Of a DNA stretch of 32,000 nt, positions 1,945 to 32,000 are shown one piece after another. The stretch comes from Copranaerobaculum intestinale. Lineage in GTDB: Bacteria; Bacillota_I; Bacilli_A; Erysipelotrichales; Erysipelotrichaceae. Made by a program: the position numbers and the translations under genes. Positions within the stretch are counted from its first letter, which is position 1. Each line of letters starts with the position of its first letter. Where the stretch lies: the NCBI RefSeq assembly GCF_009831105.1, contig NZ_WUUQ01000001.1:870001-902000 (forward strand), given 5' to 3'. The notes under the pieces were generated by a model that had not been told where the DNA came from, ran no database searches, and saw only the letters and a program-made list of their open reading frames with translations.

Positions 1945-2850
1945 ATGAGTTATTTGATTACAACGCCTTATATCATAAAGGATCTCAAGCCGTTAAAAGA
2001 AGCCGGCGCCGACGGTGTAGTCATCGGTACCCCTTTTTTTTCCGCTCGCGCGGCTGCGATATTTTCCTTCGATGAGCTGAAGCTTTTACGCAAGGAAACG
2101 AAGCAATTAAACTTGTTAATGTTTGTGTTGGTGAACCGCATGTTTACGGAGGAGGAACTGGATCGTCTGACTGACTATTTGAAGTACTTAAAGGAACTGC
2201 AGGTAGACGGTATTTATTTTTGTGATGAGGGTGTTTTACAGATTGCAGAATCGCTGCATATGGCTGATCGATTGATCTATCAGCCGGACACGCTGCTGAC
2301 AAATTCCTGTGATGTCAAGTATTATCTCGATGAAGGGTTGAAGATGGTTACGTTGGCAAAGGAAATTACGCTGGCGGAAATGTGTGCGATCGCTAAGCAT
2401 GCCGATGGCTCGCGTATCGAAGTGATCATTCACGGTCGGGAAAATATGATGCATTCCAAGCGGCGGCTGTTAAGCAGCTATATGGAGCACATCCATGCTG
2501 CGGATACGGTATTTGGAAAGCGTACGCTGTATTTACGCGAGGAGACCCGTGATGATCATTTTCCTATCTTGGAGGATGAACTGGGAACGCATGTATTCAC
2601 CGGCTTTACCCTAGCGGCATTTGCGGAAATCAAGACGCTGGCAGATGCCGGCATTGCCTATTTTCGAATTGACGGAATCTTTCATGATCTTGCGTATGTA
2701 TGTGAGGCTTTGCGTCTTTATCGAGCTGTGCTGAGCAATCAGGCAGACGGTGCCGAGGTGTTTGCCGATTATAAAAAGCGTTATGCAGACGATCATGTAA
2801 CGACCGGATTTTTATACCAGCGCACCGGTCTGCATAAGGAGCGTTTATGA
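1945..2850 (+). CDS. Peptidase U32 family protein, short form (B. subtilis YrrN-like; tRNA U34 hydroxylation-type U32 pair)
   Basis: 301 aa with a U32-like TIM-barrel-type sequence. It is paired with and overlaps (ATGA at 2847-2850) a longer U32 paralog, the typical yrrN/yrrO arrangement. RBS AGAGGTGA. Confidence 0.8.
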   Translation: MSYLITTPYIIKDLKPLKEAGADGVVIGTPFFSARAAAIFSFDELKLLRKETKQLNLLMFVLVNRMFTEEELDRLTDYLKYLKELQVDGIYFCDEGVLQIAESLHMADRLIYQPDTLLTNSCDVKYYLDEGLKMVTLAKEITLAEMCAIAKHADGSRIEVIIHGRENMMHSKRRLLSSYMEHIHAADTVFGKRTLYLREETRDDHFPILEDELGTHVFTGFTLAAFAEIKTLADAGIAYFRIDGIFHDLAYVCEALRLYRAVLSNQADGAEVFADYKKRYADDHVTTGFLYQRTGLHKERL

Positions 2851-4067
2851 AAAAGATTGAATTATTAAGTCCGGCCGGTGATTTAGAGCGGCTGAAAATT
2901 GCGGTACGCTATGGTGCCGATGCAGTATATATCGGCGGGAAAAAATTTTCCCTGCGTTCTCGGGCGAGCAATTTCGACATTGAGGATATTGCAGAAGGCG
3001 TAAAGTTTGCGAAACAATACGGCGCACATATTCATGTGACGGTAAATATGCTTCCGCACGAGGATGATCTGGAAGGGCTTGAGGCTTATTTGAAGGATTT
3101 GGAGCGAGTCGGTGTTACCGCTGTTATTGCGGCTTCTCCGTATATTGCGAAATGTGCGAAGCGCTTGGCTCCCAAACTGGAGGTGCATGTCAGTACGCAG
3201 CATTCGTCCACCAATTCTAAAGCAGTTGCCTATTGGCAGAAACAGGGAATGGATCGGGTCGTGCTGGCACGTGAGCTGACGCTGGCACAAATTCAGGAAA
3301 CTGCGTCAAAATCAAGTCTGCCCTTAGAGGTGTTTATTCATGGCGGCATGTGCATTTCTTATTCGGGCCGCTGCACCTTGTCTAATAATATGACGAATCG
3401 TGATGCCAATCGGGGCGGCTGTGCCCAGAGCTGCCGCTGGCAGTATGAGCTGTATGATGCCGGCAAAGCGCTTCACGATCCGGCAGACTTGTTTTCGATG
3501 TCCAGCAAGGATTTAATGGCGGCGCCTTATATACCGGATTTAATCGATGCCGGAATTGCATCGCTGAAAATTGAGGGACGGATGAAATCGGTCTACTACA
3601 TCGCAACTCTAGTTAAGACCTATCGGATGTTTATTGATGAGTATTATGATAAGGGTGCGATCAGCGCAGAACGCATGAATTGGTATCGAAGTGAATTTGC
3701 CAAGGCGGAAAATCGACCCACCAGCTGCGGCTTCTATGAAGGCATGCCGAAGGTGAGCGGTCATCTGTATGATCATAATCGTGCGGTTGTCGGTCAGGAA
3801 TTTATCGGCTATGTCTGGGACTACGATCCAAAGCGCGGTCTGGCAAAAGTAGAAGTGCGCAATCATTTCCGCAGGGGTGAAAATATTGAGGTCTTTGGAC
3901 CATCCCTGACCAATGAGCCGGCTGAAATTACGAATTTGTACGACGAGGAGGGCAATCTTGTTGAGGTTGCGAATAAGCCGACCCAGATACTATACATGGA
4001 GCTGCCGTTTGCGGTCAGCCGCCATGATATGATACGAAAGAGGAGAAACGATCATGAAATTAAGTAA
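2847..4067 (+). CDS. Peptidase U32 family protein, long form (YrrO/YegQ-like)
   Basis: 406 aa. U32 signature region EVFIHGGMCISYSGRCTLSN and the LKIEGRMKS motif. RBS AAGGAG. The stop overlaps the proS start by 14 nt. Confidence 0.85.
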   Translation: MKKIELLSPAGDLERLKIAVRYGADAVYIGGKKFSLRSRASNFDIEDIAEGVKFAKQYGAHIHVTVNMLPHEDDLEGLEAYLKDLERVGVTAVIAASPYIAKCAKRLAPKLEVHVSTQHSSTNSKAVAYWQKQGMDRVVLARELTLAQIQETASKSSLPLEVFIHGGMCISYSGRCTLSNNMTNRDANRGGCAQSCRWQYELYDAGKALHDPADLFSMSSKDLMAAPYIPDLIDAGIASLKIEGRMKSVYYIATLVKTYRMFIDEYYDKGAISAERMNWYRSEFAKAENRPTSCGFYEGMPKVSGHLYDHNRAVVGQEFIGYVWDYDPKRGLAKVEVRNHFRRGENIEVFGPSLTNEPAEITNLYDEEGNLVEVANKPTQILYMELPFAVSRHDMIRKRRNDHEIK

Positions 4068-5739
4068 CAGCTATTTTTATACATTGCGGGAGAATGTCAA
4101 GGATGAGGATTCCACCAGCGGTAATCTGCTGGCCAGAGCCGGTATGATCAAAAAAAGCAGCGCCGGTGTATATATGATCATGCCGTTAGGTATGAAGGTG
4201 CTGCATAAGATTGAAACAATCATCCGTGAGGAAATGGATAATACCGGCGCCCAGGAACTGCTGATGCCTTCTTTGATATTGGAAGAGGTCTATGAGAACT
4301 CCGGCCGCCGTGAAGCGTTTGGTTCCAACATGTTTGCGCTGAAGGATCGCTTTCAGAAAAATTATGTATTAGGTCCGACCCACGAGGAATTGTTTACGAT
4401 GGCCGCAATGATGAAAGGACGTTCCTATAAGGATTTCCCATATACCCTTTATCAGATTCAGACAAAATATCGCGATGAAACCAGACCTCGCTTTGGGTTA
4501 ATCCGCGTGCGTGAGTTTATCATGAAGGATTCATATTCCTTTGATACTGATCTGGATGGATTGCATGTATCCTATATGAAAATGTTCAATGCCTATAAAA
4601 AAATCTTTGATCGGATGGATCTGAATTATAAGATCGTTAAAGCTGATACCGGAGCGATGGGCGGCCTGTTATCCGAAGAATTTCAGGCGCTGTGCGAAAT
4701 TGGTGAAGATGTGGTGGTGAATTGTGAACACTGTGACTTCTCCAGTAATCTGGAAATTACCGAAGTAATCGATCAAAGCGTACCTAGTACAGAGCCTTAT
4801 CAAGATATCGAGTTAGTGGCAACGCCGAATGCCAAAACAATTGAAGAGGTAGCCGCTTTCTTTGGATGTCAGGCCGATCAGTTTGTAAAGACACTGATCT
4901 ATCGAGTAGACGGAAAGCTTTATGCGTTTTTATTGAAGGGAAATCGAGAACTGAATGAAACCAAGGCACTCAAGCTTTTGAAGGCGAATGAAATAGAGCT
5001 GGCAAACTTTGAGGATGTCGAAACAGTTACCAAGGCAAAGGTTGGCTTTGCTGGTCCGATCGGACTTTCTATTCCAGTGATCATGGATCAGGAGATTGTC
5101 AATATGCGTAACTTTATCACCGGTGCAAACCAGAGTGATCACCATCTGAAAAATGTGAATATCAAGGATTTTGAAGTATATAAAACCGCAGATATTGCTA
5201 GTGTCAAGGAAGGTGATATCTGTCCGGTCTGCGGGAAGCCGTTAGTTTTCACCAAAGGTATCGAGGTTGGTAATACCTTTAAACTAGGCACCAAGTATGC
5301 CAAGAGTCTGGGATTGGAATATCTGGATGCGGACAATAAGCTGCAGCCGGTTGTCATGGGCTCCTATGGCATCGGCTGTGAGCGCTGTATGGCGGCGATT
5401 GTGGAGCAGCACAACGATGAGCATGGCATTATCTGGCCGAAATCGGTAGCGCCATTTGATTTGGGAATTGTGGTTGCGAATATCAAGGATGAGACCCAGG
5501 TGAAGCTTGCGGAGAAGCTGTATAACCAGTTGAAACAGCAGGGCTACGATGTACTGCTGGATGACCGCAAGGAACGCCCGGGAGTAAAATTTAAGGATAT
5601 GGAGCTGATTGGACTGCCAATTCGGATTACCGTCGGTAAACGCTCTGGTGAAGGTATCATCGAGGTGCGTGAACGTACTGCAGATGAAAATCAGGAAATG
5701 TCGGTTGAAGAACTGTATGCGTATTTAAAGCAAGCATAA
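4054..5739 (+). CDS. proS: Proline--tRNA ligase, bacterial type with INS editing domain
   Basis: 561 aa. Class II motifs (FRDEtRPRFGLiRvREFiMKD, GSYGIGCERcmAAIVEQ), an inserted editing domain at about residues 230-390, and a C-terminal anticodon-binding domain. RBS AGAGGAGAA. Confidence 0.95.
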   Translation: MKLSNSYFYTLRENVKDEDSTSGNLLARAGMIKKSSAGVYMIMPLGMKVLHKIETIIREEMDNTGAQELLMPSLILEEVYENSGRREAFGSNMFALKDRFQKNYVLGPTHEELFTMAAMMKGRSYKDFPYTLYQIQTKYRDETRPRFGLIRVREFIMKDSYSFDTDLDGLHVSYMKMFNAYKKIFDRMDLNYKIVKADTGAMGGLLSEEFQALCEIGEDVVVNCEHCDFSSNLEITEVIDQSVPSTEPYQDIELVATPNAKTIEEVAAFFGCQADQFVKTLIYRVDGKLYAFLLKGNRELNETKALKLLKANEIELANFEDVETVTKAKVGFAGPIGLSIPVIMDQEIVNMRNFITGANQSDHHLKNVNIKDFEVYKTADIASVKEGDICPVCGKPLVFTKGIEVGNTFKLGTKYAKSLGLEYLDADNKLQPVVMGSYGIGCERCMAAIVEQHNDEHGIIWPKSVAPFDLGIVVANIKDETQVKLAEKLYNQLKQQGYDVLLDDRKERPGVKFKDMELIGLPIRITVGKRSGEGIIEVRERTADENQEMSVEELYAYLKQA

Positions 5740-5745
5740 GATATA

Positions 5746-5768
5746 GCAGGAGCGATTCCTGCTTTTTA
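5746..5768 (+). terminator. Rho-independent terminator after proS
   Basis: AGCAGGA (5746-5752) / TCCTGCT (5757-5763), followed by a T-run. Confidence 0.75.
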
Positions 5769-5804
5769 TATGTGCTATAATACAAGCAAGAAATGAGGGG
5801 TAGT

Positions 5805-6434
5805 ATGTTTCAGCTGGAGAATGTAAAGTTCAAGCATATTTTAGATATACCGAAGCTTACGATCAATGAAGGGATAACCTGTCTGATCGGTGCGTCGGGA
5901 GCGGGAAAAACCACATTGTTGAAATTGTTGAATAAATTATATAGTCCTGATAGCGGTAAGATTTATTATCAGGGGAAAAACATGGAAACAATTGATAGTG
6001 TTACACATCGCCGCGAGGTGATTATGCTGGGACAAAATCCGATTATTTATGAAGGATCTGTGGAGGATAATTTACAGATGGGTTTGCGTTTTTCACATCG
6101 TACAGATGCGAGTCAACAAGAATTAAAAAAGGTCTTAAAGCAAGTGCAATTGGACAAGCCGATGAATGCTTCCTGTGCTGGTTTGTCCGGTGGGGAGAAA
6201 CAGCGGTTATGTTTGGCACGCATTATGTTAATGGATGGCGAAGTTTATTTATTGGATGAACCAAGCAGTGCATTGGATCAGGAAAGTGAAGCTTTCCTAA
6301 TTCAATGTTTGAGTAATTTTGTGTTAAAACGTAATAAAAGCATGATCATGGTGACCCATTCCATGCATGCGGTAGATTTGTTAGATGCACATAAGATACG
6401 CATTGCTAAAGGAAACAGCGAGGTAATCGTATGA
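5805..6434 (+). CDS. fetA: ABC transporter ATP-binding protein, FetA/YbbL-like
   Basis: Walker A GASGAGKTTL, signature LSGGEKQR, Walker B LLDEPSSALD. Short (~209 aa) ATPase coupled (ATGA overlap) to a FetB-type permease. I prefer the ATG at 5805 (GAGGGG 4 nt upstream) over the ORF-track ATG at 5793, which lies inside the RBS. Confidence 0.8.
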   Translation: MFQLENVKFKHILDIPKLTINEGITCLIGASGAGKTTLLKLLNKLYSPDSGKIYYQGKNMETIDSVTHRREVIMLGQNPIIYEGSVEDNLQMGLRFSHRTDASQQELKKVLKQVQLDKPMNASCAGLSGGEKQRLCLARIMLMDGEVYLLDEPSSALDQESEAFLIQCLSNFVLKRNKSMIMVTHSMHAVDLLDAHKIRIAKGNSEVIV

Positions 6435-7225
6435 AGGATCATGTAATGGATCTTAGCATCTTACAGTTGGCGATTGCTTATATTTTCGTGTTATTGCTGC
6501 TGATTGTATTTCGTAAGCGCGGAATACGTCGAGAAAAACAAATTTTGATCGCAGCGACCCGCATGACGGTGCAGTTAACCTTTATGGGATATATCTTGAT
6601 GTATGTATTCCACAATCCCAGCTGGTGGCTCACCTCATTGATGATTCTAGTCATGGTTTCTTTTGCCGTATTCAATTCCTGGAAACGAGTAAAAGAACCA
6701 TTAGGTAGAGAATTGAAGCAAATCATGGCCATTGCTTTAATCGCTGGATCTTTGATTATTGCCGTCTTATTTATTTTGTTGATTTTACAGGTGAAGCCAT
6801 GGTTTGATCCACAATATTTCATTCCTATCAGCGGTATGATCATCGGTAATGCGATGACTGGAATATCACTTGGGGCGAACAAGCTTTGTTGGGAGATGAA
6901 AACCCAACGGGAGCGTATTGAAAATTCTCTTATGCTGGGGGCAGAACCACATGATGCAGTGCATCAGATCGTCAATGATGCGTTTGACAGTGCAATCTTA
7001 CCAACAATGAATAATATGTTGACGATGGGTATCGTATCATTGCCTGGCATGATGACTGGACAAATTCTATCGGGTACCGTACCGCTTACGGCAATTCGTT
7101 ACCAGATTGGGATCATGTTGGCAATCTTAGGAAGTACGACTTTAACCGTTGTGATCTTTGTAATCTTAGGTTATCGAACCTTCTTCACGAAATCAAAGCA
7201 ATTGAAATCACAATCACAAGAATGA
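6431..7225 (+). CDS. fetB: Iron-export-type ABC permease, FetB/YbbM (UPF0014) family
   Basis: 264 aa polytopic membrane protein with family-typical TRMTVQLTFMGYIL and MIIGNAMTG segments. It is coupled to the FetA-like ATPase. Confidence 0.7.
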   Translation: MKDHVMDLSILQLAIAYIFVLLLLIVFRKRGIRREKQILIAATRMTVQLTFMGYILMYVFHNPSWWLTSLMILVMVSFAVFNSWKRVKEPLGRELKQIMAIALIAGSLIIAVLFILLILQVKPWFDPQYFIPISGMIIGNAMTGISLGANKLCWEMKTQRERIENSLMLGAEPHDAVHQIVNDAFDSAILPTMNNMLTMGIVSLPGMMTGQILSGTVPLTAIRYQIGIMLAILGSTTLTVVIFVILGYRTFFTKSKQLKSQSQE

Positions 7226-7331
7226 TAAAACAATTTTAGTCGTACAAACTGTTTCGTAATCGTATATTAATTTAAGCAGATAAAGATTTTTGATACGAAT
7301 ACTATGTGTATTCTATATAATTTAACTTAAA

Positions 7332-7360
7332 TTGACATTGCATATATAAAAGTGGATAAT
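7332..7360 (+). promoter_or_regulatory. Sigma-A-like promoter candidate upstream of the acyltransferase gene
   Basis: Consensus -35 TTGACA (7332-7337), 17-bp spacer, -10 GATAAT (7355-7360), in an AT-rich intergenic region. Confidence 0.4.
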
Positions 7361-7488
7361 AAGTATAAAATTAAAACGATTTTAAATTCAGAAAAAAATA
7401 AAAAAAACAACGTCTTTTATATAACATATAAAGATATTAATAGAATGTTTATTATCGTCTAACTATTATAAAAAAAGAGAGAAGAAAT

Positions 7489-8601
7489 ATGAAAGTAAGA
7501 GAAAGAAATATTGAGTTATTAAGAATTTTTGCAATGATAATGATAATTTCATTGCATTTTTTAGGTCATGGCGGAGTTTTAGTCAATGTTTCACCATATT
7601 CTATCCAATATTATGTATGTTGGATTCTTGAAGGTTTATGTTTTATATCAGTAAACTGCTATGTTTTAATTAGCGGTTACTTTTTAATTGATTCCAAATT
7701 TAAAATTAAGAAGTTATTAATTTTATTAGGACAAGTATTTTTCTTTTCGATTAGTTTGTATCTAATAACAAGTCTTCTATCAGGAACCCCCTTTTCAAAG
7801 GTTACTTTACTGAAAGCTGTATTTCCTACAAATTCTAATGTGTATTGGTTTGTGACGATGTACGTTGGGATGTATATTTTATCTCCATTTATAAATACTT
7901 TATTGAAGAATCTCACACAGAAGCAGCATTTTTTATTAATATGTGTGTCTGTGACGCTTTTTTCTATATTGCCAACGCTGTTTTTCTATTCGACAGGCTT
8001 AAATTTTGGTGGCGGAAATGGAGTTGTTTGGTTCATCGTATTATACATTGTAGCTGCATATATTAAAAAATATAAGCGGGTGATAAAGAATGTCCATAAA
8101 GTTGTATTGTTATATGGAATTTGTGCTGTCATGGTTCCTATTAGTTTTTTTGGATTGGATTTTATAGCTAATAAACTCAATTCAGAATTCTTGTTGCAGC
8201 ATGTACAAGTCATGTACTCTTATAATTCCATTTTTGTATTTTTTGCTTCTGTATTTGCTTTTCTGTTATTTTTGAATATAAAAATCAAATCTAAATTCTG
8301 CAATAAAATTATTGATATATTTTCAGCAACGACATTCGGCGTCTATTTGATTCATGATAATCCATTTGTCAGATCATTATTATGGGGACATTTAAAAGTT
8401 TATACATATTTGGGAATATCAACTCCGATATTTTTGATTAGGATGCTCTTTATAATTTTTGCTATTTTTGTAGTTTGTAGTTTTATAAGCGGGCTAGTAA
8501 ATAAATTTTTGTCTTATATAAACACTATGGAATTTTTAGATCGATTATCCCTTTTTCTTGAAAAAAAAGCGGATGCCTTTCTAACTTCTTTCATCAAATG
8601 A
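7489..8601 (+). CDS. Acyltransferase family 3 integral membrane protein (O-acyl/acetyltransferase of cell-surface glycans type)
   Basis: 370 aa with about 10 hydrophobic segments. The N-terminus RNIELLRIFAMIMIISLHF is typical of Acyl_transf_3 (conserved R..H). The gene is very AT-rich relative to its neighbours. Confidence 0.7.
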   Translation: MKVRERNIELLRIFAMIMIISLHFLGHGGVLVNVSPYSIQYYVCWILEGLCFISVNCYVLISGYFLIDSKFKIKKLLILLGQVFFFSISLYLITSLLSGTPFSKVTLLKAVFPTNSNVYWFVTMYVGMYILSPFINTLLKNLTQKQHFLLICVSVTLFSILPTLFFYSTGLNFGGGNGVVWFIVLYIVAAYIKKYKRVIKNVHKVVLLYGICAVMVPISFFGLDFIANKLNSEFLLQHVQVMYSYNSIFVFFASVFAFLLFLNIKIKSKFCNKIIDIFSATTFGVYLIHDNPFVRSLLWGHLKVYTYLGISTPIFLIRMLFIIFAIFVVCSFISGLVNKFLSYINTMEFLDRLSLFLEKKADAFLTSFIK

Positions 8602-24431: not shown

Positions 24432-24623
24432 ATTATTTCCTCCAATATAGGAATATTGTACATTTTTCATAAAAAAAGTCCATATTATATAGTAAAATTT
24501 TCAAATTAACATTTAAAACTTAAAAAATATTACTGTTTTTTGCATTAAAAATAAGAAAATAGGCTTAAATCTTAATTTTTTATCATATACTTCATATGAA
24601 GATGAAAATCCGGTTATAAATTG

Positions 24624-24652
24624 TTGTAAATAACGTGCAATTTTGGTAAATT
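24624..24652 (+). promoter_or_regulatory. Sigma-A-like promoter candidate for the rubredoxin-like/rubrerythrin genes
   Basis: -35 TTGTAA (24624-24629), 17-bp spacer, extended -10 TGgTAAATT (24644-24652). Confidence 0.4.
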
Positions 24653-24698
24653 AAGGGTACAATAAACACGAACAAAGTTCAAAAGGAGGACCTTATCA

Positions 24699-25031
24699 AT
24701 GAAGCTATGGAAATGCAGTATCTGCGGTTATGTTCATGAAGGTGAAACCGCTCCGGCCGTATGTCCGAAGTGCAATGCCCCGCAGGACAAATTTGTGCTG
24801 ATGGATGAATCAGCCGCTGAGAAGATTTACCGCAGTGACAAAACGAATGATCTTCAGATGAAGCTGATTACGCTGGCGATGGAAATGAATGCAGTGGCAG
24901 AAGCCGGTATCAAGGATAATCTGGATCCGATGTGCGTCCATGTATTTGAGTATGCGAAGAAAGCTGCCTGGGAAGTAAAACAGATGGCAAAAGCTGAAAT
25001 CGCTGGTCATGTTGGTAAAGGAAAATTCTAG
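24699..25031 (+). CDS. Rubredoxin-like zinc-ribbon protein with helical C-terminal domain
   Basis: N-terminal [29 protein letters not shown] (CxxC...CxxC), near-identical in pattern to the C-terminal domain of the adjacent rubrerythrin. RBS AAGGAGG. Confidence 0.7.
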
Positions 25032-25045
25032 GAGGGAGATTTCAT

Positions 25046-25582
25046 ATGAACTTAAAAGGAACAAAGACAGAACAGAATTTGATGCAGGCATTTGCCGGGG
25101 AGAGCCAGGCGCATACAAAATATCAGTATTATGCATCAAAAGCGAAGAAGGACGGCTATGTTCAAATTGCCAATATCTTCGAACAGACATCTAAAAATGA
25201 AAAGGAGCATGCTAAGCTGTGGTTCAAGCTGCTGCATGACGGTATGCCGGATACATTGTGTAATCTGAAGGATGCCGCTGCCGGTGAAAATTATGAATGG
25301 ACCGACATGTATGCCAACATGGCTAAAGAAGCTAGAGAAGAAGGCTTCGATGATATCGCCGCGACGATGGACGGAGTTGCCGCTATTGAAAAAACACATG
25401 AACAGCGCTATGTCGCATTATTAAACAATATCGAAGACGGTGCGGTATTCAGCAAGGATGAAGAGACGGTTTGGGAATGCCTGAACTGCGGTCATCTGCA
25501 CGTTGGCAAGAATGCTCCGGAGATTTGTCCGGTATGTAATCATCCGCAGTCATACTTCGAAGTGCGTGAAGAGAATTACTAA
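25046..25582 (+). CDS. rbr: Rubrerythrin
   Basis: 178 aa. Di-iron four-helix bundle ligands ([23 protein letters not shown]) plus a C-terminal rubredoxin-like [29 protein letters not shown]. Confidence 0.9.
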
Positions 25583-25602
25583 GATAATCAAAACGATGAC
25601 AA

Positions 25603-25630
25603 AGGGATGCAAGCTGCATCTCTTTTGTTT
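25603..25630 (+). terminator. Rho-independent terminator candidate after rbr
   Basis: AGGGATGCA / TGCATCTCT stem (one mismatch), followed by TTTGTTTT. Confidence 0.55.
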
Positions 25631-25699
25631 TCTTTGATGGGTTGTAATCGCTTACATAAATTGGCCGGATAAAAACGCAGGAATTCTGATAAAATATCA

Positions 25700-25727
25700 T
25701 TGTAAAAATAATAGAAACGAGTACAAT
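25700..25727 (+). promoter_or_regulatory. Sigma-A-like promoter candidate for ktrBA
   Basis: -35 TTGTAA (25700-25705), 16-bp spacer, -10 TACAAT (25722-25727). Confidence 0.4.
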
Positions 25728-25779
25728 GGATTGTGAACATCGTGAATTCGTAAGGATTCGTTAAGTGAGGGTAAAATGT

Positions 25780-29535: not shown

Positions 29536-29599
29536 TTTGGCTCGATCAGAGAAGCAATTTGTTTACAGGATTTCCCAATACAATAATTCCCAATGAAAA

Positions 29600-30511
29600 A
29601 TGACGGATGGAAATGCTAAGATGAAAGAAAAAGGGAAAGGAAATCAGGAAACGATGAAGAAGAACGTATTGGATAGGAATATTATGAACCGGTATCAGAA
29701 ATATCTGTATGGGGAAGAGCGAAGCGAAGCTACCATAAAGAAATATATGAGAGATATCGAACATTTTTATGAATATCTGCCGGCAGCGAAGGTTGTAACG
29801 AAGGAACTGCTAGTCGCATATAAGCGAAGCTTAACAGATATCTATAAAGTAAGCAGTATCAATAGCATGCTGGTTGCGCTCAACGGCCTCTTAAGCTATA
29901 TGGGGGTTGGACATCTGAAGCTTAAGCTGCTGAAGGTTCAGAAGAAGGTATTTCATATGGAAGACAGGGAGCTCAAGAAAGCAGAATACAAAAGGCTGCT
30001 GGAGACAGCTTTGAAAAAAGATAATAAAAGATTATATATGCTGATCCAGACGATCTGCGGAACCGGGATCCGTGTATCCGAGCATCGCTTTATCACGGTG
30101 GAGAGCTTGAAGGAGGGGCAGGTAATGGTAAGCAATAAGGGGAAGAGTCGAATTATCTTTATCCAAAAGAAGCTGAGAAGACTCCTATTGGAATACTGTC
30201 GGGAGGCGAAGATCGAACGGGGATCGATCTTTATCACGAAAAACGGAAGACCGATGGATCGCTCAAACATCTGGAGTGCGATGAAGCAGCTCTGTGAGGA
30301 AGCGGGAGTTGAACGAAGGAAAGTTTTTCCGCATAATCTGCGGCACCTCTTTGCATATACCTATTATGGACTATACAAGGATGTAGTGCGGCTGGCTGAC
30401 ATCTTGGGCCATTCGAGTATTGAGACGACAAGAATCTATACGATGAGCAGCGGAAAGGAATGCCAGCGGTCGTTAATGAGGATGGGCTTGGTCGATCTGA
30501 TAAAAACATAA
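29600..30511 (+). CDS. Tyrosine site-specific recombinase (phage integrase family; stand-alone invertase-like)
   Basis: Catalytic set visible: R (GTGIRVSE), K (NKGKSRIIF), HxxR (HNLRHLFA), H (LGHSSIETT), Y (TRIY). N-terminal SAM-like core-binding domain (ATIKKYMRDIEHFYEYL). The true start is ambiguous: in-frame ATGs at 29600, 29621, 29654 and 29684, none with a strong RBS. Confidence 0.9.
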   Translation: MTDGNAKMKEKGKGNQETMKKNVLDRNIMNRYQKYLYGEERSEATIKKYMRDIEHFYEYLPAAKVVTKELLVAYKRSLTDIYKVSSINSMLVALNGLLSYMGVGHLKLKLLKVQKKVFHMEDRELKKAEYKRLLETALKKDNKRLYMLIQTICGTGIRVSEHRFITVESLKEGQVMVSNKGKSRIIFIQKKLRRLLLEYCREAKIERGSIFITKNGRPMDRSNIWSAMKQLCEEAGVERRKVFPHNLRHLFAYTYYGLYKDVVRLADILGHSSIETTRIYTMSSGKECQRSLMRMGLVDLIKT

Positions 30512-30551
30512 AAAAAACGATTTGAAGGAAACGGTGAGAAAATGAGCAGCG

Positions 30552-30580
30552 TTACCACATAATGTGTATTATGTGGTCAA
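30552..30580. repeat. Recombinase-target-like site L: TTACCACATAA-TGTGTA-TTATGTGGTcA
   Basis: 11-nt inverted arms (one mismatch) around a 6-bp centre whose asymmetric core is GTGT. Located 41 nt after the recombinase stop. Confidence 0.7.
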
Positions 30581-30795
30581 ACGCCGTAAGCTTATTAAAA
30601 AACCGCAATAAACGGAGGCTGATTATCGCAACTATTTGTAAATATTTAATATATGTGAGAAATGTAACCGTTTTACATGTTTTATCTTACCATGTTACTT
30701 TTTCTTCAACAACGAATATTGGTAAATAACGAAATATGTTGGGGAAATCATATAAATCACATAAAATCACACAGATCATCACGCTTATGTATACG

Positions 30796-30816
30796 AAAAA
30801 AAGGCATGATCATGCC
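30796..30816 (-). terminator. Weak terminator-like element on the minus strand inside the invertible segment
   Basis: Perfect 14-nt palindrome GGCATGATCATGCC (30803-30816), followed on the minus strand by T7 (A-run 30796-30802 on plus). The stem is short. Confidence 0.3.
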
Positions 30817-30901
30817 GCAAACAGACGATTTGTCAGAAATATACTGCCAATATAAGTAAAAAAACAAGATATCTGAAATGACATCCGATGGTGATGTTTT
30901 T

Positions 30902-30930
30902 TTGTATGTCAAAAGGATCAGGAATATGCT
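30902..30930 (+). promoter_or_regulatory. Promoter candidate at the right edge of the invertible segment, facing the LytTR gene
   Basis: -35 TTGTAT (30902-30907), 17-bp spacer, -10 TATGCT (30925-30930). Both hexamers are imperfect. Confidence 0.3.
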
Positions 30931-30932
30931 CG

Positions 30933-30960
30933 TTACCACATAATACACATTATGTGGTAA
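30933..30960. repeat. Recombinase-target-like site R: TTACCACATAA-TACACA-TTATGTGGTAA
   Basis: Perfect inverted arms (12 nt if the flanking T/A pair of the centre is counted). The centre ACAC is the exact reverse complement of the site L centre. Located 27 nt upstream of the LytTR gene ATG. Confidence 0.7.
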
Positions 30961-30986
30961 GAGAGAATAAAGGGAAAGGGAATGAC

Positions 30987-31796
30987 ATGGACAAAAAGAG
31001 TATTGAACAATGTCTTGCGCTAAGTAAGGAAGTGATGATCCGGCACTTTCATGGGGATAATGAGTTTGCTGTATCACATATGCATAAAAACTGTATCTGG
31101 ATCGGTTCATGTGCCAGTGAATTCTATCAGGGGAAGGATACCATCGCTGCGGTCTTGCGCCAGGAAGCAGCCGATCTGCCGCAGGTAGAGCTGTCGGCCT
31201 TCGAATATATGTGTGTATCGCAGGATGTACATGACTGTACCGTAACGGGCAGACACGTCGGAAGGACACGGTTAGATTCCGGAGAGCTGTATCGGGACAT
31301 GCAGCGAGTCACATTTGTGTGGAAAAAGGAAAAGGATGAATATCGGATCATGCATATTCATGTATCAAATCCAATGAACAATTTGAAAGAGGGAGAGGTG
31401 TTTCCCCACCGAATGGGGAAGTATGCAAAGGAATATCTGAACATGCTGGTGAGCCGAGAGGTGGAAAAGAACGGAACGATCACGGTCAAGGATCAGCAGA
31501 ATCGGTTTCATATCATCCAAATCAGCGATATCTTGTATTTTGAAGCATTCAATATGAATTGTATCCTGCATCTGAAGAACGATGATGATGTATTCGGAAG
31601 GATCACGCTGCTGGAGGTGGAGAAACAGATTCAAAAAAAGAATGCTGATATGTTCAAGCGGGTACATAAGAGTTACTTAGTTAATAAGTATCATACAGCA
31701 GCTTTAAAGCGTTATGAGATAACAATGAGCAATCAAGAACAAATTCCGGTATCTCAGAAACGCTATAACGAGGTGAGAAAATGGCTCCATCAATAA
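30987..31796 (+). CDS. LytTR-family DNA-binding regulator with N-terminal NTF2/SnoaL-like (DUF4440-type) domain; no receiver domain
   Basis: C-terminal LytTR pattern (ISDILYFEAFNMNCILHL..., FKRVHKSYLVNKYH, IPVSQKRYNEVRKWL). N-terminal ~130 aa have an NTF2-like signature (IWIGSCASEFYQGKDTI...RVTFVWKKEKDEYRIMHIHVS). Start set at ATG 30987, downstream of site R with a GGGAAAGGGA RBS; the ORF-track start at 30888 would run through the repeat. Confidence 0.8.
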   Translation: MDKKSIEQCLALSKEVMIRHFHGDNEFAVSHMHKNCIWIGSCASEFYQGKDTIAAVLRQEAADLPQVELSAFEYMCVSQDVHDCTVTGRHVGRTRLDSGELYRDMQRVTFVWKKEKDEYRIMHIHVSNPMNNLKEGEVFPHRMGKYAKEYLNMLVSREVEKNGTITVKDQQNRFHIIQISDILYFEAFNMNCILHLKNDDDVFGRITLLEVEKQIQKKNADMFKRVHKSYLVNKYHTAALKRYEITMSNQEQIPVSQKRYNEVRKWLHQ

Positions 31797-31802
31797 GGGG
31801 GG

Positions 31803-31988
31803 ATGATATTGAAGCAAGGAAGTCGATACGAAATAGGACAAAGCTATTCACATGAGGAATATCGAAACGCGGGTGTGGCTCACATAAAGCAGGGGAATGG
31901 TCGCTGTGAATATTATCATAAGGGTAAATTGATTAGTGAGGAAGCAGCGGAAGAGCTGGTAAGGAGCTATCAGAAAAAGCTGAAATAA
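31803..31988 (+). CDS. Hypothetical small protein (61 aa)
   Basis: ORF 7 nt after the LytTR stop on the same strand. The G-rich RBS-like run abuts the ATG, so the start may be the TTG at 31809. Hydrophilic, no recognisable motif. Confidence 0.3.
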   Translation: MILKQGSRYEIGQSYSHEEYRNAGVAHIKQGNGRCEYYHKGKLISEEAAEELVRSYQKKLK

Positions 31989-32000
31989 AGAGAGGGGTGA

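Follow-up and report, generated by a model that had tools for sequence, protein, structure and literature searches.

A candidate invertible promoter upstream of an NTF2-LytTR regulator and phosphodiesterase operon in Copranaerobaculum intestinale

Promoter switches of Clostridioides difficile are among the described systems closest to the locus reported here. The cmr switch acts on the regulators CmrR and CmrT through a promoter in the ON orientation and is autoregulated (PMC8844915), and the pdcB and pdcC switches, with OFF as the reference orientation, govern phosphodiesterases that combine a degenerate GGDEF with an EAL domain (PMC9286219). We analysed a 32,000-nt stretch of the Copranaerobaculum intestinale genome (contig NZ_WUUQ01000001.1, positions 870,001 to 902,000), hereafter the window, in which a tyrosine recombinase gene, a 357-bp segment between two inverted recombination sites, and the gene of a LytTR-domain regulator follow one another between positions 29,600 and 31,796. 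We put at about 80% the probability that this locus is a functional or recently functional inverton, that is, an invertible promoter flipped by a tyrosine recombinase.

With the RecV-dependent cmr switch of cmrRST, the locus shares a tyrosine recombinase, a short segment between inverted repeats and, by prediction, a promoter active in one orientation (PMC8844915). As in cmrRST, the cargo includes a DNA-binding regulator and a link to cyclic di-GMP (c-di-GMP); the positive autoregulation known for cmr (PMC8844915) is here only predicted. Unlike in cmrRST, the regulator combines an NTF2-like with a LytTR domain and has neither a receiver domain nor a kinase, no c-di-GMP riboswitch was found in Rfam searches, and the sites are lox/dif-like palindromes. 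RecV serves many switches from elsewhere, whereas the recombinase in the window is encoded beside its switch. The third gene of the predicted operon has the same degenerate GGDEF-EAL make-up as the genes controlled by the pdcB (Cdi2) and pdcC switches; unlike in pdcB, its sensor domain is NTF2-like and not PAS, and the phosphodiesterase would be co-transcribed with the regulator. Cdi2 measures 174 bp and lies 840 bp upstream, whereas the element described here is longer, at 357 bp, and 26 nt separate it from the first gene.

Phase variation by this mechanism already affects the cmrRST regulators and the pdcB/pdcC phosphodiesterases of C. difficile (PMC8844915, PMC9286219), so that the remark in a preliminary description of this DNA that no described switch with such a cargo was known was too strong. 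The mechanism is classical, and both kinds of cargo have precedents in C. difficile. Our literature search, which included the text of inverton surveys, found no description of an Erysipelotrichales switch family or of NTF2-LytTR regulators. The analogy with a phasevarion drawn in the preliminary description holds for the logic of switching a whole regulon and not for the cargo, which is a DNA-binding regulator plus a phosphodiesterase rather than a methyltransferase.

The fimS switch of Escherichia coli is a segment of ~300 bp between 9-bp repeats that needs IHF and Lrp and controls fimbriae, its recombinases FimB and FimE being short invertase-type enzymes. A dedicated tyrosine recombinase beside an invertible promoter segment is a feature of fimS and, in our interpretation, of the locus in the window; in contrast to FimB and FimE, the enzyme studied here matches invertase models only weakly, and its cargo is a regulator and a phosphodiesterase instead of fimbriae. 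The closest solved relatives of the enzyme are of the Xer type (XerA, XerD, XerH), and as in Xer/dif systems two inverted arms of ~10 bp surround a short centre. Unlike in Xer/dif systems, two inverted sites flank a predicted promoter in place of a single chromosomal dif, and the outcome would be inversion and not dimer resolution. The regulator resembles the activators AgrA and ComE in its C-terminal LytTR fold and in the paired direct repeats that abut a weak -35 element, and differs from them in that an NTF2-like domain replaces the receiver and in that the predicted box, TTYMCCAAHAT, is not the AgrA or the ComE box.

Recombination sites with covarying centres and the adjacent recombinase

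The recombinase gene, the two sites and the segment between them are placed as follows.

29600..30511, plus strand: Xer-like tyrosine recombinase, putative invertase; longest open reading frame (ORF), Pfam Phage_integrase
30552..30577, no strand: left site IRL, ACCACATAAT-GTGT-ATTATGTGGT, inside a palindrome at 30550-30583
30578..30934, no strand: invertible segment (putative), 357 bp, non-coding and AT-rich
30935..30960, no strand: right site IRR, ACCACATAAT-ACAC-ATTATGTGGT, inverted repeat of the left site

The stretches 30552-30577 and 30935-30960 form a perfect inverted repeat (26/26 nt) whose arms are separated by 357 nt, and the GC content of the segment (31.9%) is below that of the window (41.5%), in keeping with the preliminary description of two near-identical inverted sites around an AT-rich non-coding segment. 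The sites are 24-nt palindromes of the pattern ACCACATAAT-NNNN-ATTATGTGGT, which occurs twice in 32 kb where 0.04 occurrences are expected, and each site is palindromic in itself (CCACATAAT-GTGT-ATTATGTGG on the left, CCACATAAT-ACAC-ATTATGTGG on the right). The centres GTGT and ACAC are reverse complements of each other, and these 4 nt are the sole asymmetric part of the site and thus the part that gives it a direction. Because only this asymmetric centre is inverted between the two sites, the sites are truly oppositely oriented.

Related cassettes were collected by scans of reference genomes and metagenomes and by exact-protein look-ups. The order recombinase, sites, regulator is kept across at least 10 cassette types in Erysipelotrichales, and the layout is syntenic across species. 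The cassettes come from the following sources.

L002: [Eubacterium] hominis
L003 and L044-47: a Beduini-like isolate
L005, L006 and L090-95: Coprobacillaceae
L024-33 and L096-105: a [Clostridium] innocuum-like genome with two cassettes
L034-43 and L048: a lineage whose regulator is 74% identical to that of the window
L049-L055, L059 and L060: further metagenome lineages

Among 17 distinct site pairs from these cassettes, the 10-bp arms are nearly constant (ACMACATAAT / ATTATGTKGT), and the centre takes 10 versions (GTGT, GAGT, GCGT, GCAT, ACGG, GCAG, AGGT, TGAT, GTGC and ATGG). Left and right centres are exact reverse complements of each other in 16 of the 17 pairs, even where the arms differ. 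The strand-exchange region of tyrosine-recombinase sites must match between the partners, as is established for lox, FRT and dif; such covariation is expected of a strand-exchange region, whereas an operator has no such need.

The sole mismatched pair (GAGT versus ACGC, L050 3043-3474) is one base off complementarity, and it is one base that differs from the otherwise 97%-identical L024 cassette. This identity of 97% starts 8 nt before the left site. The L050 recombinase gene is of another lineage and does not match that of L024, and over its full length the contig shares 82% identity with L002. A switch locked by natural mutation, or a mosaic whose breakpoint lies at the site, could explain L050.

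The ORF at 29600-30511 matches Phage_integrase (1.5e-26) and the N-terminal SAM-like domain Phage_int_SAM_1, and alignment to the archaeal XerA structure 5hxy together with motif positions identified R158, K182, H245, R248, H271 and Y280, so that the catalytic R-K-H-R-H-Y set is complete, as had been claimed. Its homologues adjoin the same sites in the relatives; because they are only 283-290 amino acids long, translation probably starts at the ATG at 29654. From the stop codon of the gene to the left site there are 40 nt. Its best scores against the NCBIfam models XerA, XerD and XerC (130, 104 and 103 bits) all lie below the cut-offs of 220, 330 and 335 bits, the NCBIfam models of tyrosine-type DNA invertases match weakly (1.8e-6), and the closest solved structures are 5hxy (1e-20), 1a0p and 5jjv. 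On these comparisons we classify the predicted enzyme as Xer-like and not as an invertase of the FimB/FimE type, and with scores under the cut-offs and two inverted sites beside its gene it falls outside the XerC/XerD/XerA dimer-resolution class.

A predicted directional regulatory element between the sites

The segment is homologous to and collinear with the segments of seven other cassettes, as seen in an alignment of all eight. Within it, and upstream of the recombinase gene, the following elements were found.

30684..30712, minus strand: predicted sigma-A promoter, with -35 TTGTTG at 30712-30707, a 17-nt spacer and extended -10 TGG-TAAGAT at 30692-30684
30715..30748, minus strand: TTYMCCAAHAT as a direct pair spaced 20 bp, the repeat nearer to the -35 lying 11 nt upstream of it
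30663..30677, minus strand: 15-nt palindrome TGTAA-N5-TTACA, 7-21 nt past the -10, at roughly +1 to +15 of the transcript expected from the promoter
30796..30816, minus strand: T1, intrinsic-terminator-like hairpin with U-run, upstream of the promoter on the same strand
30881..30903, plus strand: T2, intrinsic-terminator-like hairpin with U-run, ~30 nt before the right site
29564..29593, plus strand: tandem 15-nt repeat, TACAGGATTTCCCAA / TACAATAATTCCCAA, upstream of the recombinase (repeat family D14, inverted pair I6)

In the assembled orientation, the minus-strand promoter points away from the regulator and toward the recombinase gene. It is present in 9/9 cassettes, where the hexamers and the exact 17-nt spacing are kept while the spacer sequence varies; the -35 reads TTGTTG, TTGTCG, TTGATT or TTGTTT and the extended -10 reads TGn-TAAGAT or TATGAT. 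The geometry of the TTYMCCAAHAT pair is likewise identical in 9 cassettes, with minus-strand pairs in the segments of the relatives. The motif has four matches in the window against 0.66 expected, two of them being the box pair of the segment, and an activator, possibly the LytTR regulator, may bind at this pair. The TGTAA-N5-TTACA block, which is kept in most of the eight aligned cassettes, could act as a 5' stem-loop or as an operator.

At the T1 position, most relatives have a hairpin and a T-run with differing stem sequences. T2 was found in all eight aligned cassettes, with compensatory stem changes between species, and lies directly upstream of the regulator in every cassette. An Rfam search with both strands of the segment and with the whole window returned no credible riboswitch, leader or known RNA element. 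The segment thus appears to carry a directional regulatory element composed of a predicted promoter, a box pair and two opposed terminators.

The tandem repeat at 29564-29593 contains TTCCCAA and looks like the TTYMCCAAHAT boxes of the segment, and paired TTACCA/TTCCCA motifs stand upstream of the recombinase in relatives. We regard the repeat, speculatively, as a candidate binding site of the regulator, which hints at feedback on the recombinase.

Evidence for inversion, proposed states and alternative explanations

Recombinant junctions were found in isolate assemblies of two relatives. In the Beduini-like assembly GCA_902363625.1 (L003/L045), the regulator 5' end and its flank, in reverse complement, are joined to ACCACATAAT-ACGG-ATTATGTTGT and the start of the segment. 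Three other assemblies of the same species show a simple, unflipped locus, with ACAACATAAT-ACGG-ATTATGTTGT on the left and ACCACATAAT-CCGT-ATTATGTGGT on the right. By comparison with these parental sites, the extra site is a hybrid with half-sites exchanged between left and right, and in reverse complement it matches exactly the right junction that inversion would create. Mis-assembly is evident at the L003 locus (4687-6415), which has an N at 4984, a tandem duplication of 125 nt, and a 471-nt reverse-complement copy of the regulator 5' end, the hybrid site and then a second copy of the segment. A 256-nt perfect inverted repeat at this locus was rejected as a genuine second copy of the regulator; it is absent from the three other assemblies and lies in the region with the N and the tandem duplication.

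The second case is the isolate scaffold L006 (5505-5561), in which a 10-N gap inside the left site is followed by the hybrid CTACAACATAAT-GTGT-ATTATGTGGTAG, made of a right outer and a left inner half, whereas L090, L093 and L094 of the same species have the parental ACCACATAAT-GTGT-ATTATGTGGTAG. In addition, two Logan contigs from different runs and samples start exactly at the base where the two orientations diverge, and one contig of a metagenome-assembled genome starts at a site. We read the hybrid junctions and the contig breaks as traces of reads from a flipped minority in clonal cultures. Together with the covariation of the centres in 16/17 pairs and the layout kept in at least 10 cassette types, the hybrid half-sites support the phase-variation architecture proposed in the preliminary description. 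For C. intestinale itself we infer inversion, after which the junctions would read gtattatgtggtAACGAGCATATTCCTGATCC and GCTTACGGCGTTTGaccacataatacac or, in longer form, gtattatgtggtAACGAGCATATTCC and CTTACGGCGTTTGaccacataatacac.

Separately, ~36 nt upstream of the left site, a metagenome scaffold of the same species as the window (L001, ~1350-1365) contains a join of 10 N with an overlap of 5 nt; difficulty in assembling the switch may be the cause, or the join may be a coincidence. The N-terminally extended regulators P0127 and P0137 were rejected as products of flipped contigs, their extensions being translations of unflipped T2 and right-site sequence.

In the mechanism that we propose, the Xer-like recombinase would bind the two 10-bp arms of each palindromic site, and strand exchange within the central TNNNNA, which is identical in both sites and oppositely oriented, would flip the 357-bp segment. 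In the assembled orientation the promoter would face the recombinase gene, and T2 would block read-through from that gene into the regulator. After inversion, T1 would take over the blocking of read-through, and the promoter, whose activity is predicted from its conserved hexamers and spacing, would drive the operon with a leader of ~150 nt. Because the promoter points away from the regulator and T2 would stop read-through, the window probably shows the OFF state. ON cells would make the LytTR regulator and the c-di-GMP phosphodiesterase, both with an NTF2-like sensor domain, and switching ON would change the LytTR regulon and c-di-GMP levels in a subpopulation.

Promoters that are activated by LytTR proteins and autoregulated usually have a weak -35 beside paired direct repeats. 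Because the predicted promoter has this layout, positive autoregulation by the cassette's own regulator is plausible, at somewhat less than even odds. A wider reading, which we consider doubtful, takes the Erysipelotrichales cassettes as self-contained and mutually orthogonal units, each with its own recombinase and with shared arms, in which the 4-nt centre would serve as an address against cross-recombination. As part of this same doubtful reading, the flipped promoter would be bound by the cassette's own NTF2-LytTR regulator and depend on its activation, so that positive feedback would hold a rare flip in a stable ON state; in OFF cells, antisense transcription from this promoter would enter the recombinase gene and curb any further inversion.

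Several observations weigh against the inverton interpretation or against parts of it. No fully flipped contig was found in ~60 assemblies covering about a dozen cassette types, all of which show one orientation, and the two available assemblies of C. intestinale agree in theirs. The predicted -35 is weak, and the promoter was missed by a generic sigma-70 scan, which gave background-level hits only. The T1 and T2 hairpins of the window have modest folding energies (-6 and -7 kcal/mol, z about -1). The assemblies with hybrid junctions were scaffolded from short reads and have N-gaps and duplications, so that the junctions might be assembler artefacts, which we consider less likely than a flipped minority; the contig breaks could stem from a strain single-nucleotide polymorphism at the base of divergence, and a bubble of this kind is again the less likely explanation.

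The single orientation of the assemblies also bears on two alternatives that accept the sites as recombination sites. An unlikely one is that the switch is real and its read-out differs, either because the assembled orientation is ON or because the orientation decides whether transcripts that read through from the recombinase promoter are terminated, or how stable they are, with control not coming from an internal promoter. Read-through control of this sort has been proposed for the C. difficile flgB and pdcB switches, PdcB being expressed largely from an upstream promoter whose output changes with the orientation of the switch (PMC9286219), and the weak T2 hairpin could be leaky or regulated. 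An assembled ON state would fit a plus-strand match, TTGGGG-17-TAAAAT, at 30733-30761; we rejected this match as a promoter since it is not conserved in relatives, whereas the minus-strand promoter recurs in 9/9 cassettes at fixed spacing. The constant position of T2 directly in front of the regulator likewise argues against a different read-out, and one orientation in every assembly fits an ON state that is costly and rare. The same uniformity, seen in the two C. intestinale assemblies, would suit a fossil or locked switch, derived from an inverton and no longer inverting in this species, with the regulator constitutively off or expressed from elsewhere, and the one-base centre mismatch of L050 (GAGT versus ACGC) suggests that locking mutations occur. 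We hold this to be improbable: the 26-nt repeat of the window is perfect, its centres match and its recombinase is full length with all catalytic residues, and these features speak against decay because decay would be expected to erode them first.

The two remaining alternatives dispense with inversion and are less probable still. Each site is palindromic and close to a gene start, and the CATAAT in the arms resembles a -10 hexamer, as might be expected if the palindromes were plain operators, bound by the LytTR regulator or by the recombinase in the role of a repressor, with no recombination taking place. An operator does not need reverse-complement centres, which were kept across 10 versions, and operators cannot yield hybrid junctions with swapped half-sites, so that the operator explanation raised in the preliminary description is highly improbable. 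LytTR proteins such as AgrA and ComE typically bind direct repeats, and such repeats lie elsewhere in the segment. That the recombinase and the sites are the end of an integrated mobile element, that is, an integrase with att sites, or a resolution system of the Xer/dif type, is hardly credible. The enzyme does belong to the phage-integrase/Xer superfamily, and in [Clostridium] innocuum-like strains the cassette occurs with two upstream neighbourhoods, one of them with ParA/ParB/helix-turn-helix (HTH) genes. The repeats in the window are nevertheless inverted and not direct as att sites would be, their 357-bp interior is non-coding, no third site is present in the window, the layout is syntenic across species, and all Xer family scores are far under the NCBIfam cut-offs. 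The other large ORFs tested with Pfam across the window belong to housekeeping families (ProRS, glutamine synthetase III, TrkH, ABC transporters, amidase and YunB), and no genes of phages or of integrative and conjugative elements were seen among them, in agreement with the preliminary description. An inverton thus remains our preferred interpretation of the locus.

Operon cargo and the cassette family

Downstream of the right site, the window contains the following features.

30987..31796, plus strand: regulator with NTF2-like (SnoaL_3) and LytTR domains, 269 amino acids, no receiver domain
31803..31988, plus strand: conserved small ORF, 61 amino acids, always after the regulator, with tblastn matches at the same place in relatives
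31990..32000, plus strand: ribosome-binding region of the next gene, for an NTF2-GGDEF(degenerate)-EAL phosphodiesterase, which starts just past the window end

The ATG of the regulator (30987) follows the end of the right site after 26 nt, which confirms the reported adjacency and corrects the reported distance of 27 nt. The regulator has the same sequence as P0121, which bears the name 'regulator' in Copranaerobaculum intestinale / Clostridiaceae bacterium DONG20-135. Pfam finds LytTR (PF04397, 3e-16) and SnoaL_3 (8.5e-5), and an AlphaFold model (predicted local distance difference test score 81.6) suggests an NTF2-like N-terminal half and a C-terminal LytTR domain, consistent with the domains named in the preliminary description. 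In Foldseek searches with this model, the LytTR domain matched AgrA (4g4k, TM 0.83), ComE (4cbv) and 3d6w. By both Pfam and Foldseek the protein is a LytTR-domain transcription factor; its N-terminus is NTF2-like and the operons of the relatives contain no kinase, so that it is not a response regulator of the AgrA/ComE type. The regulator family is small, with 42 clusters. Distant homologues from Clostridia (27-35% identity) were rejected as members of the cassette family, as they come without a recombinase, such sites or upstream inverted repeats.

The cargo had been taken for a lone transcription factor. It is instead a predicted operon that encodes the regulator, the 61-amino-acid protein and an NTF2-GGDEF(degenerate)-EAL c-di-GMP phosphodiesterase. 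The small ORF is called as a gene of 61-76 amino acids in relatives and has no Pfam or NCBIfam match. L001, from the same species, continues for 150 nt past the end of the window, and the protein sequence read from it can be aligned to the N-termini of the L034 and L006 GGDEF-EAL proteins. In the relatives, the protein after the small ORF usually combines SnoaL_3, GGDEF and EAL, with GGDEF degenerate and EAL intact in 4/5. Farther downstream, relatives encode an S26-like (signal-peptidase-like) protein or a Beta_helix_3 protein of more than 1000 amino acids, and one cassette has an alternative cargo of five small unknown proteins and a 1436-amino-acid DUF285 protein. The regulator and the phosphodiesterase (e.g. 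L006 6917-8665) both start with a SnoaL_3/NTF2-like domain, through which they may sense the same ligand.

Erysipelotrichales are common gut bacteria and poorly studied. If confirmed, the inverton would provide a defined and easily assayed phase-variation system for this order, which includes the emerging pathogen [Clostridium] innocuum and its relatives, and in which a transcription factor and a c-di-GMP phosphodiesterase would be toggled jointly, with large surface proteins added in sister cassettes. The compact and possibly orthogonal pairs of recombinase and site, the sites being 24-bp palindromes that differ only in the 4-nt centre, are potential genetic tools. They also offer a natural test of how centre heterology stops several invertons in one genome from cross-reacting.

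That one genome can carry at least two cassettes is indicated by CP046174.1, a 4.46-Mb contig that has the L096 cassette (2237-7837) and on which a cassette of the L024 type is also reported. The two have identical arms, the centres TGAT and GCGT, a recombinase each and different cargo (a DUF285 surface protein versus GGDEF-EAL). The L006 cassette has no recombinase within 6 kb upstream; in the same genome (L005), a recombinase adjoins a second switch with the same GTGT centre, and one enzyme may serve both switches.

One and the same cassette stands in two upstream neighbourhoods, with ParA/ParB/HTH/DUF6809 genes in L025 and L028 and with MurD/BacA in L024, L026 and L027. Homology among L024-L028 begins ~130 nt before the recombinase start, and the L024-type cassette, or DNA beside it, may be mobile.

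At L106 (3359-3588), a recombinase with 69% identity and the same sites (centre ATGT/ACAT) accompany a 182-bp segment upstream of a secreted protein of 1266 amino acids. This protein has no Pfam match, is listed in 146 blocks of the collection and is a classical phase-variation cargo.

Elsewhere in the window, the 1.3 kb between the type III glutamine synthetase gene and trkH (24471-25765) contain only overlapping ORFs of 126 and 178 amino acids. This interval has no Rfam match, and the box motif occurs in it at two isolated places on the minus strand, 24640 and 25009.

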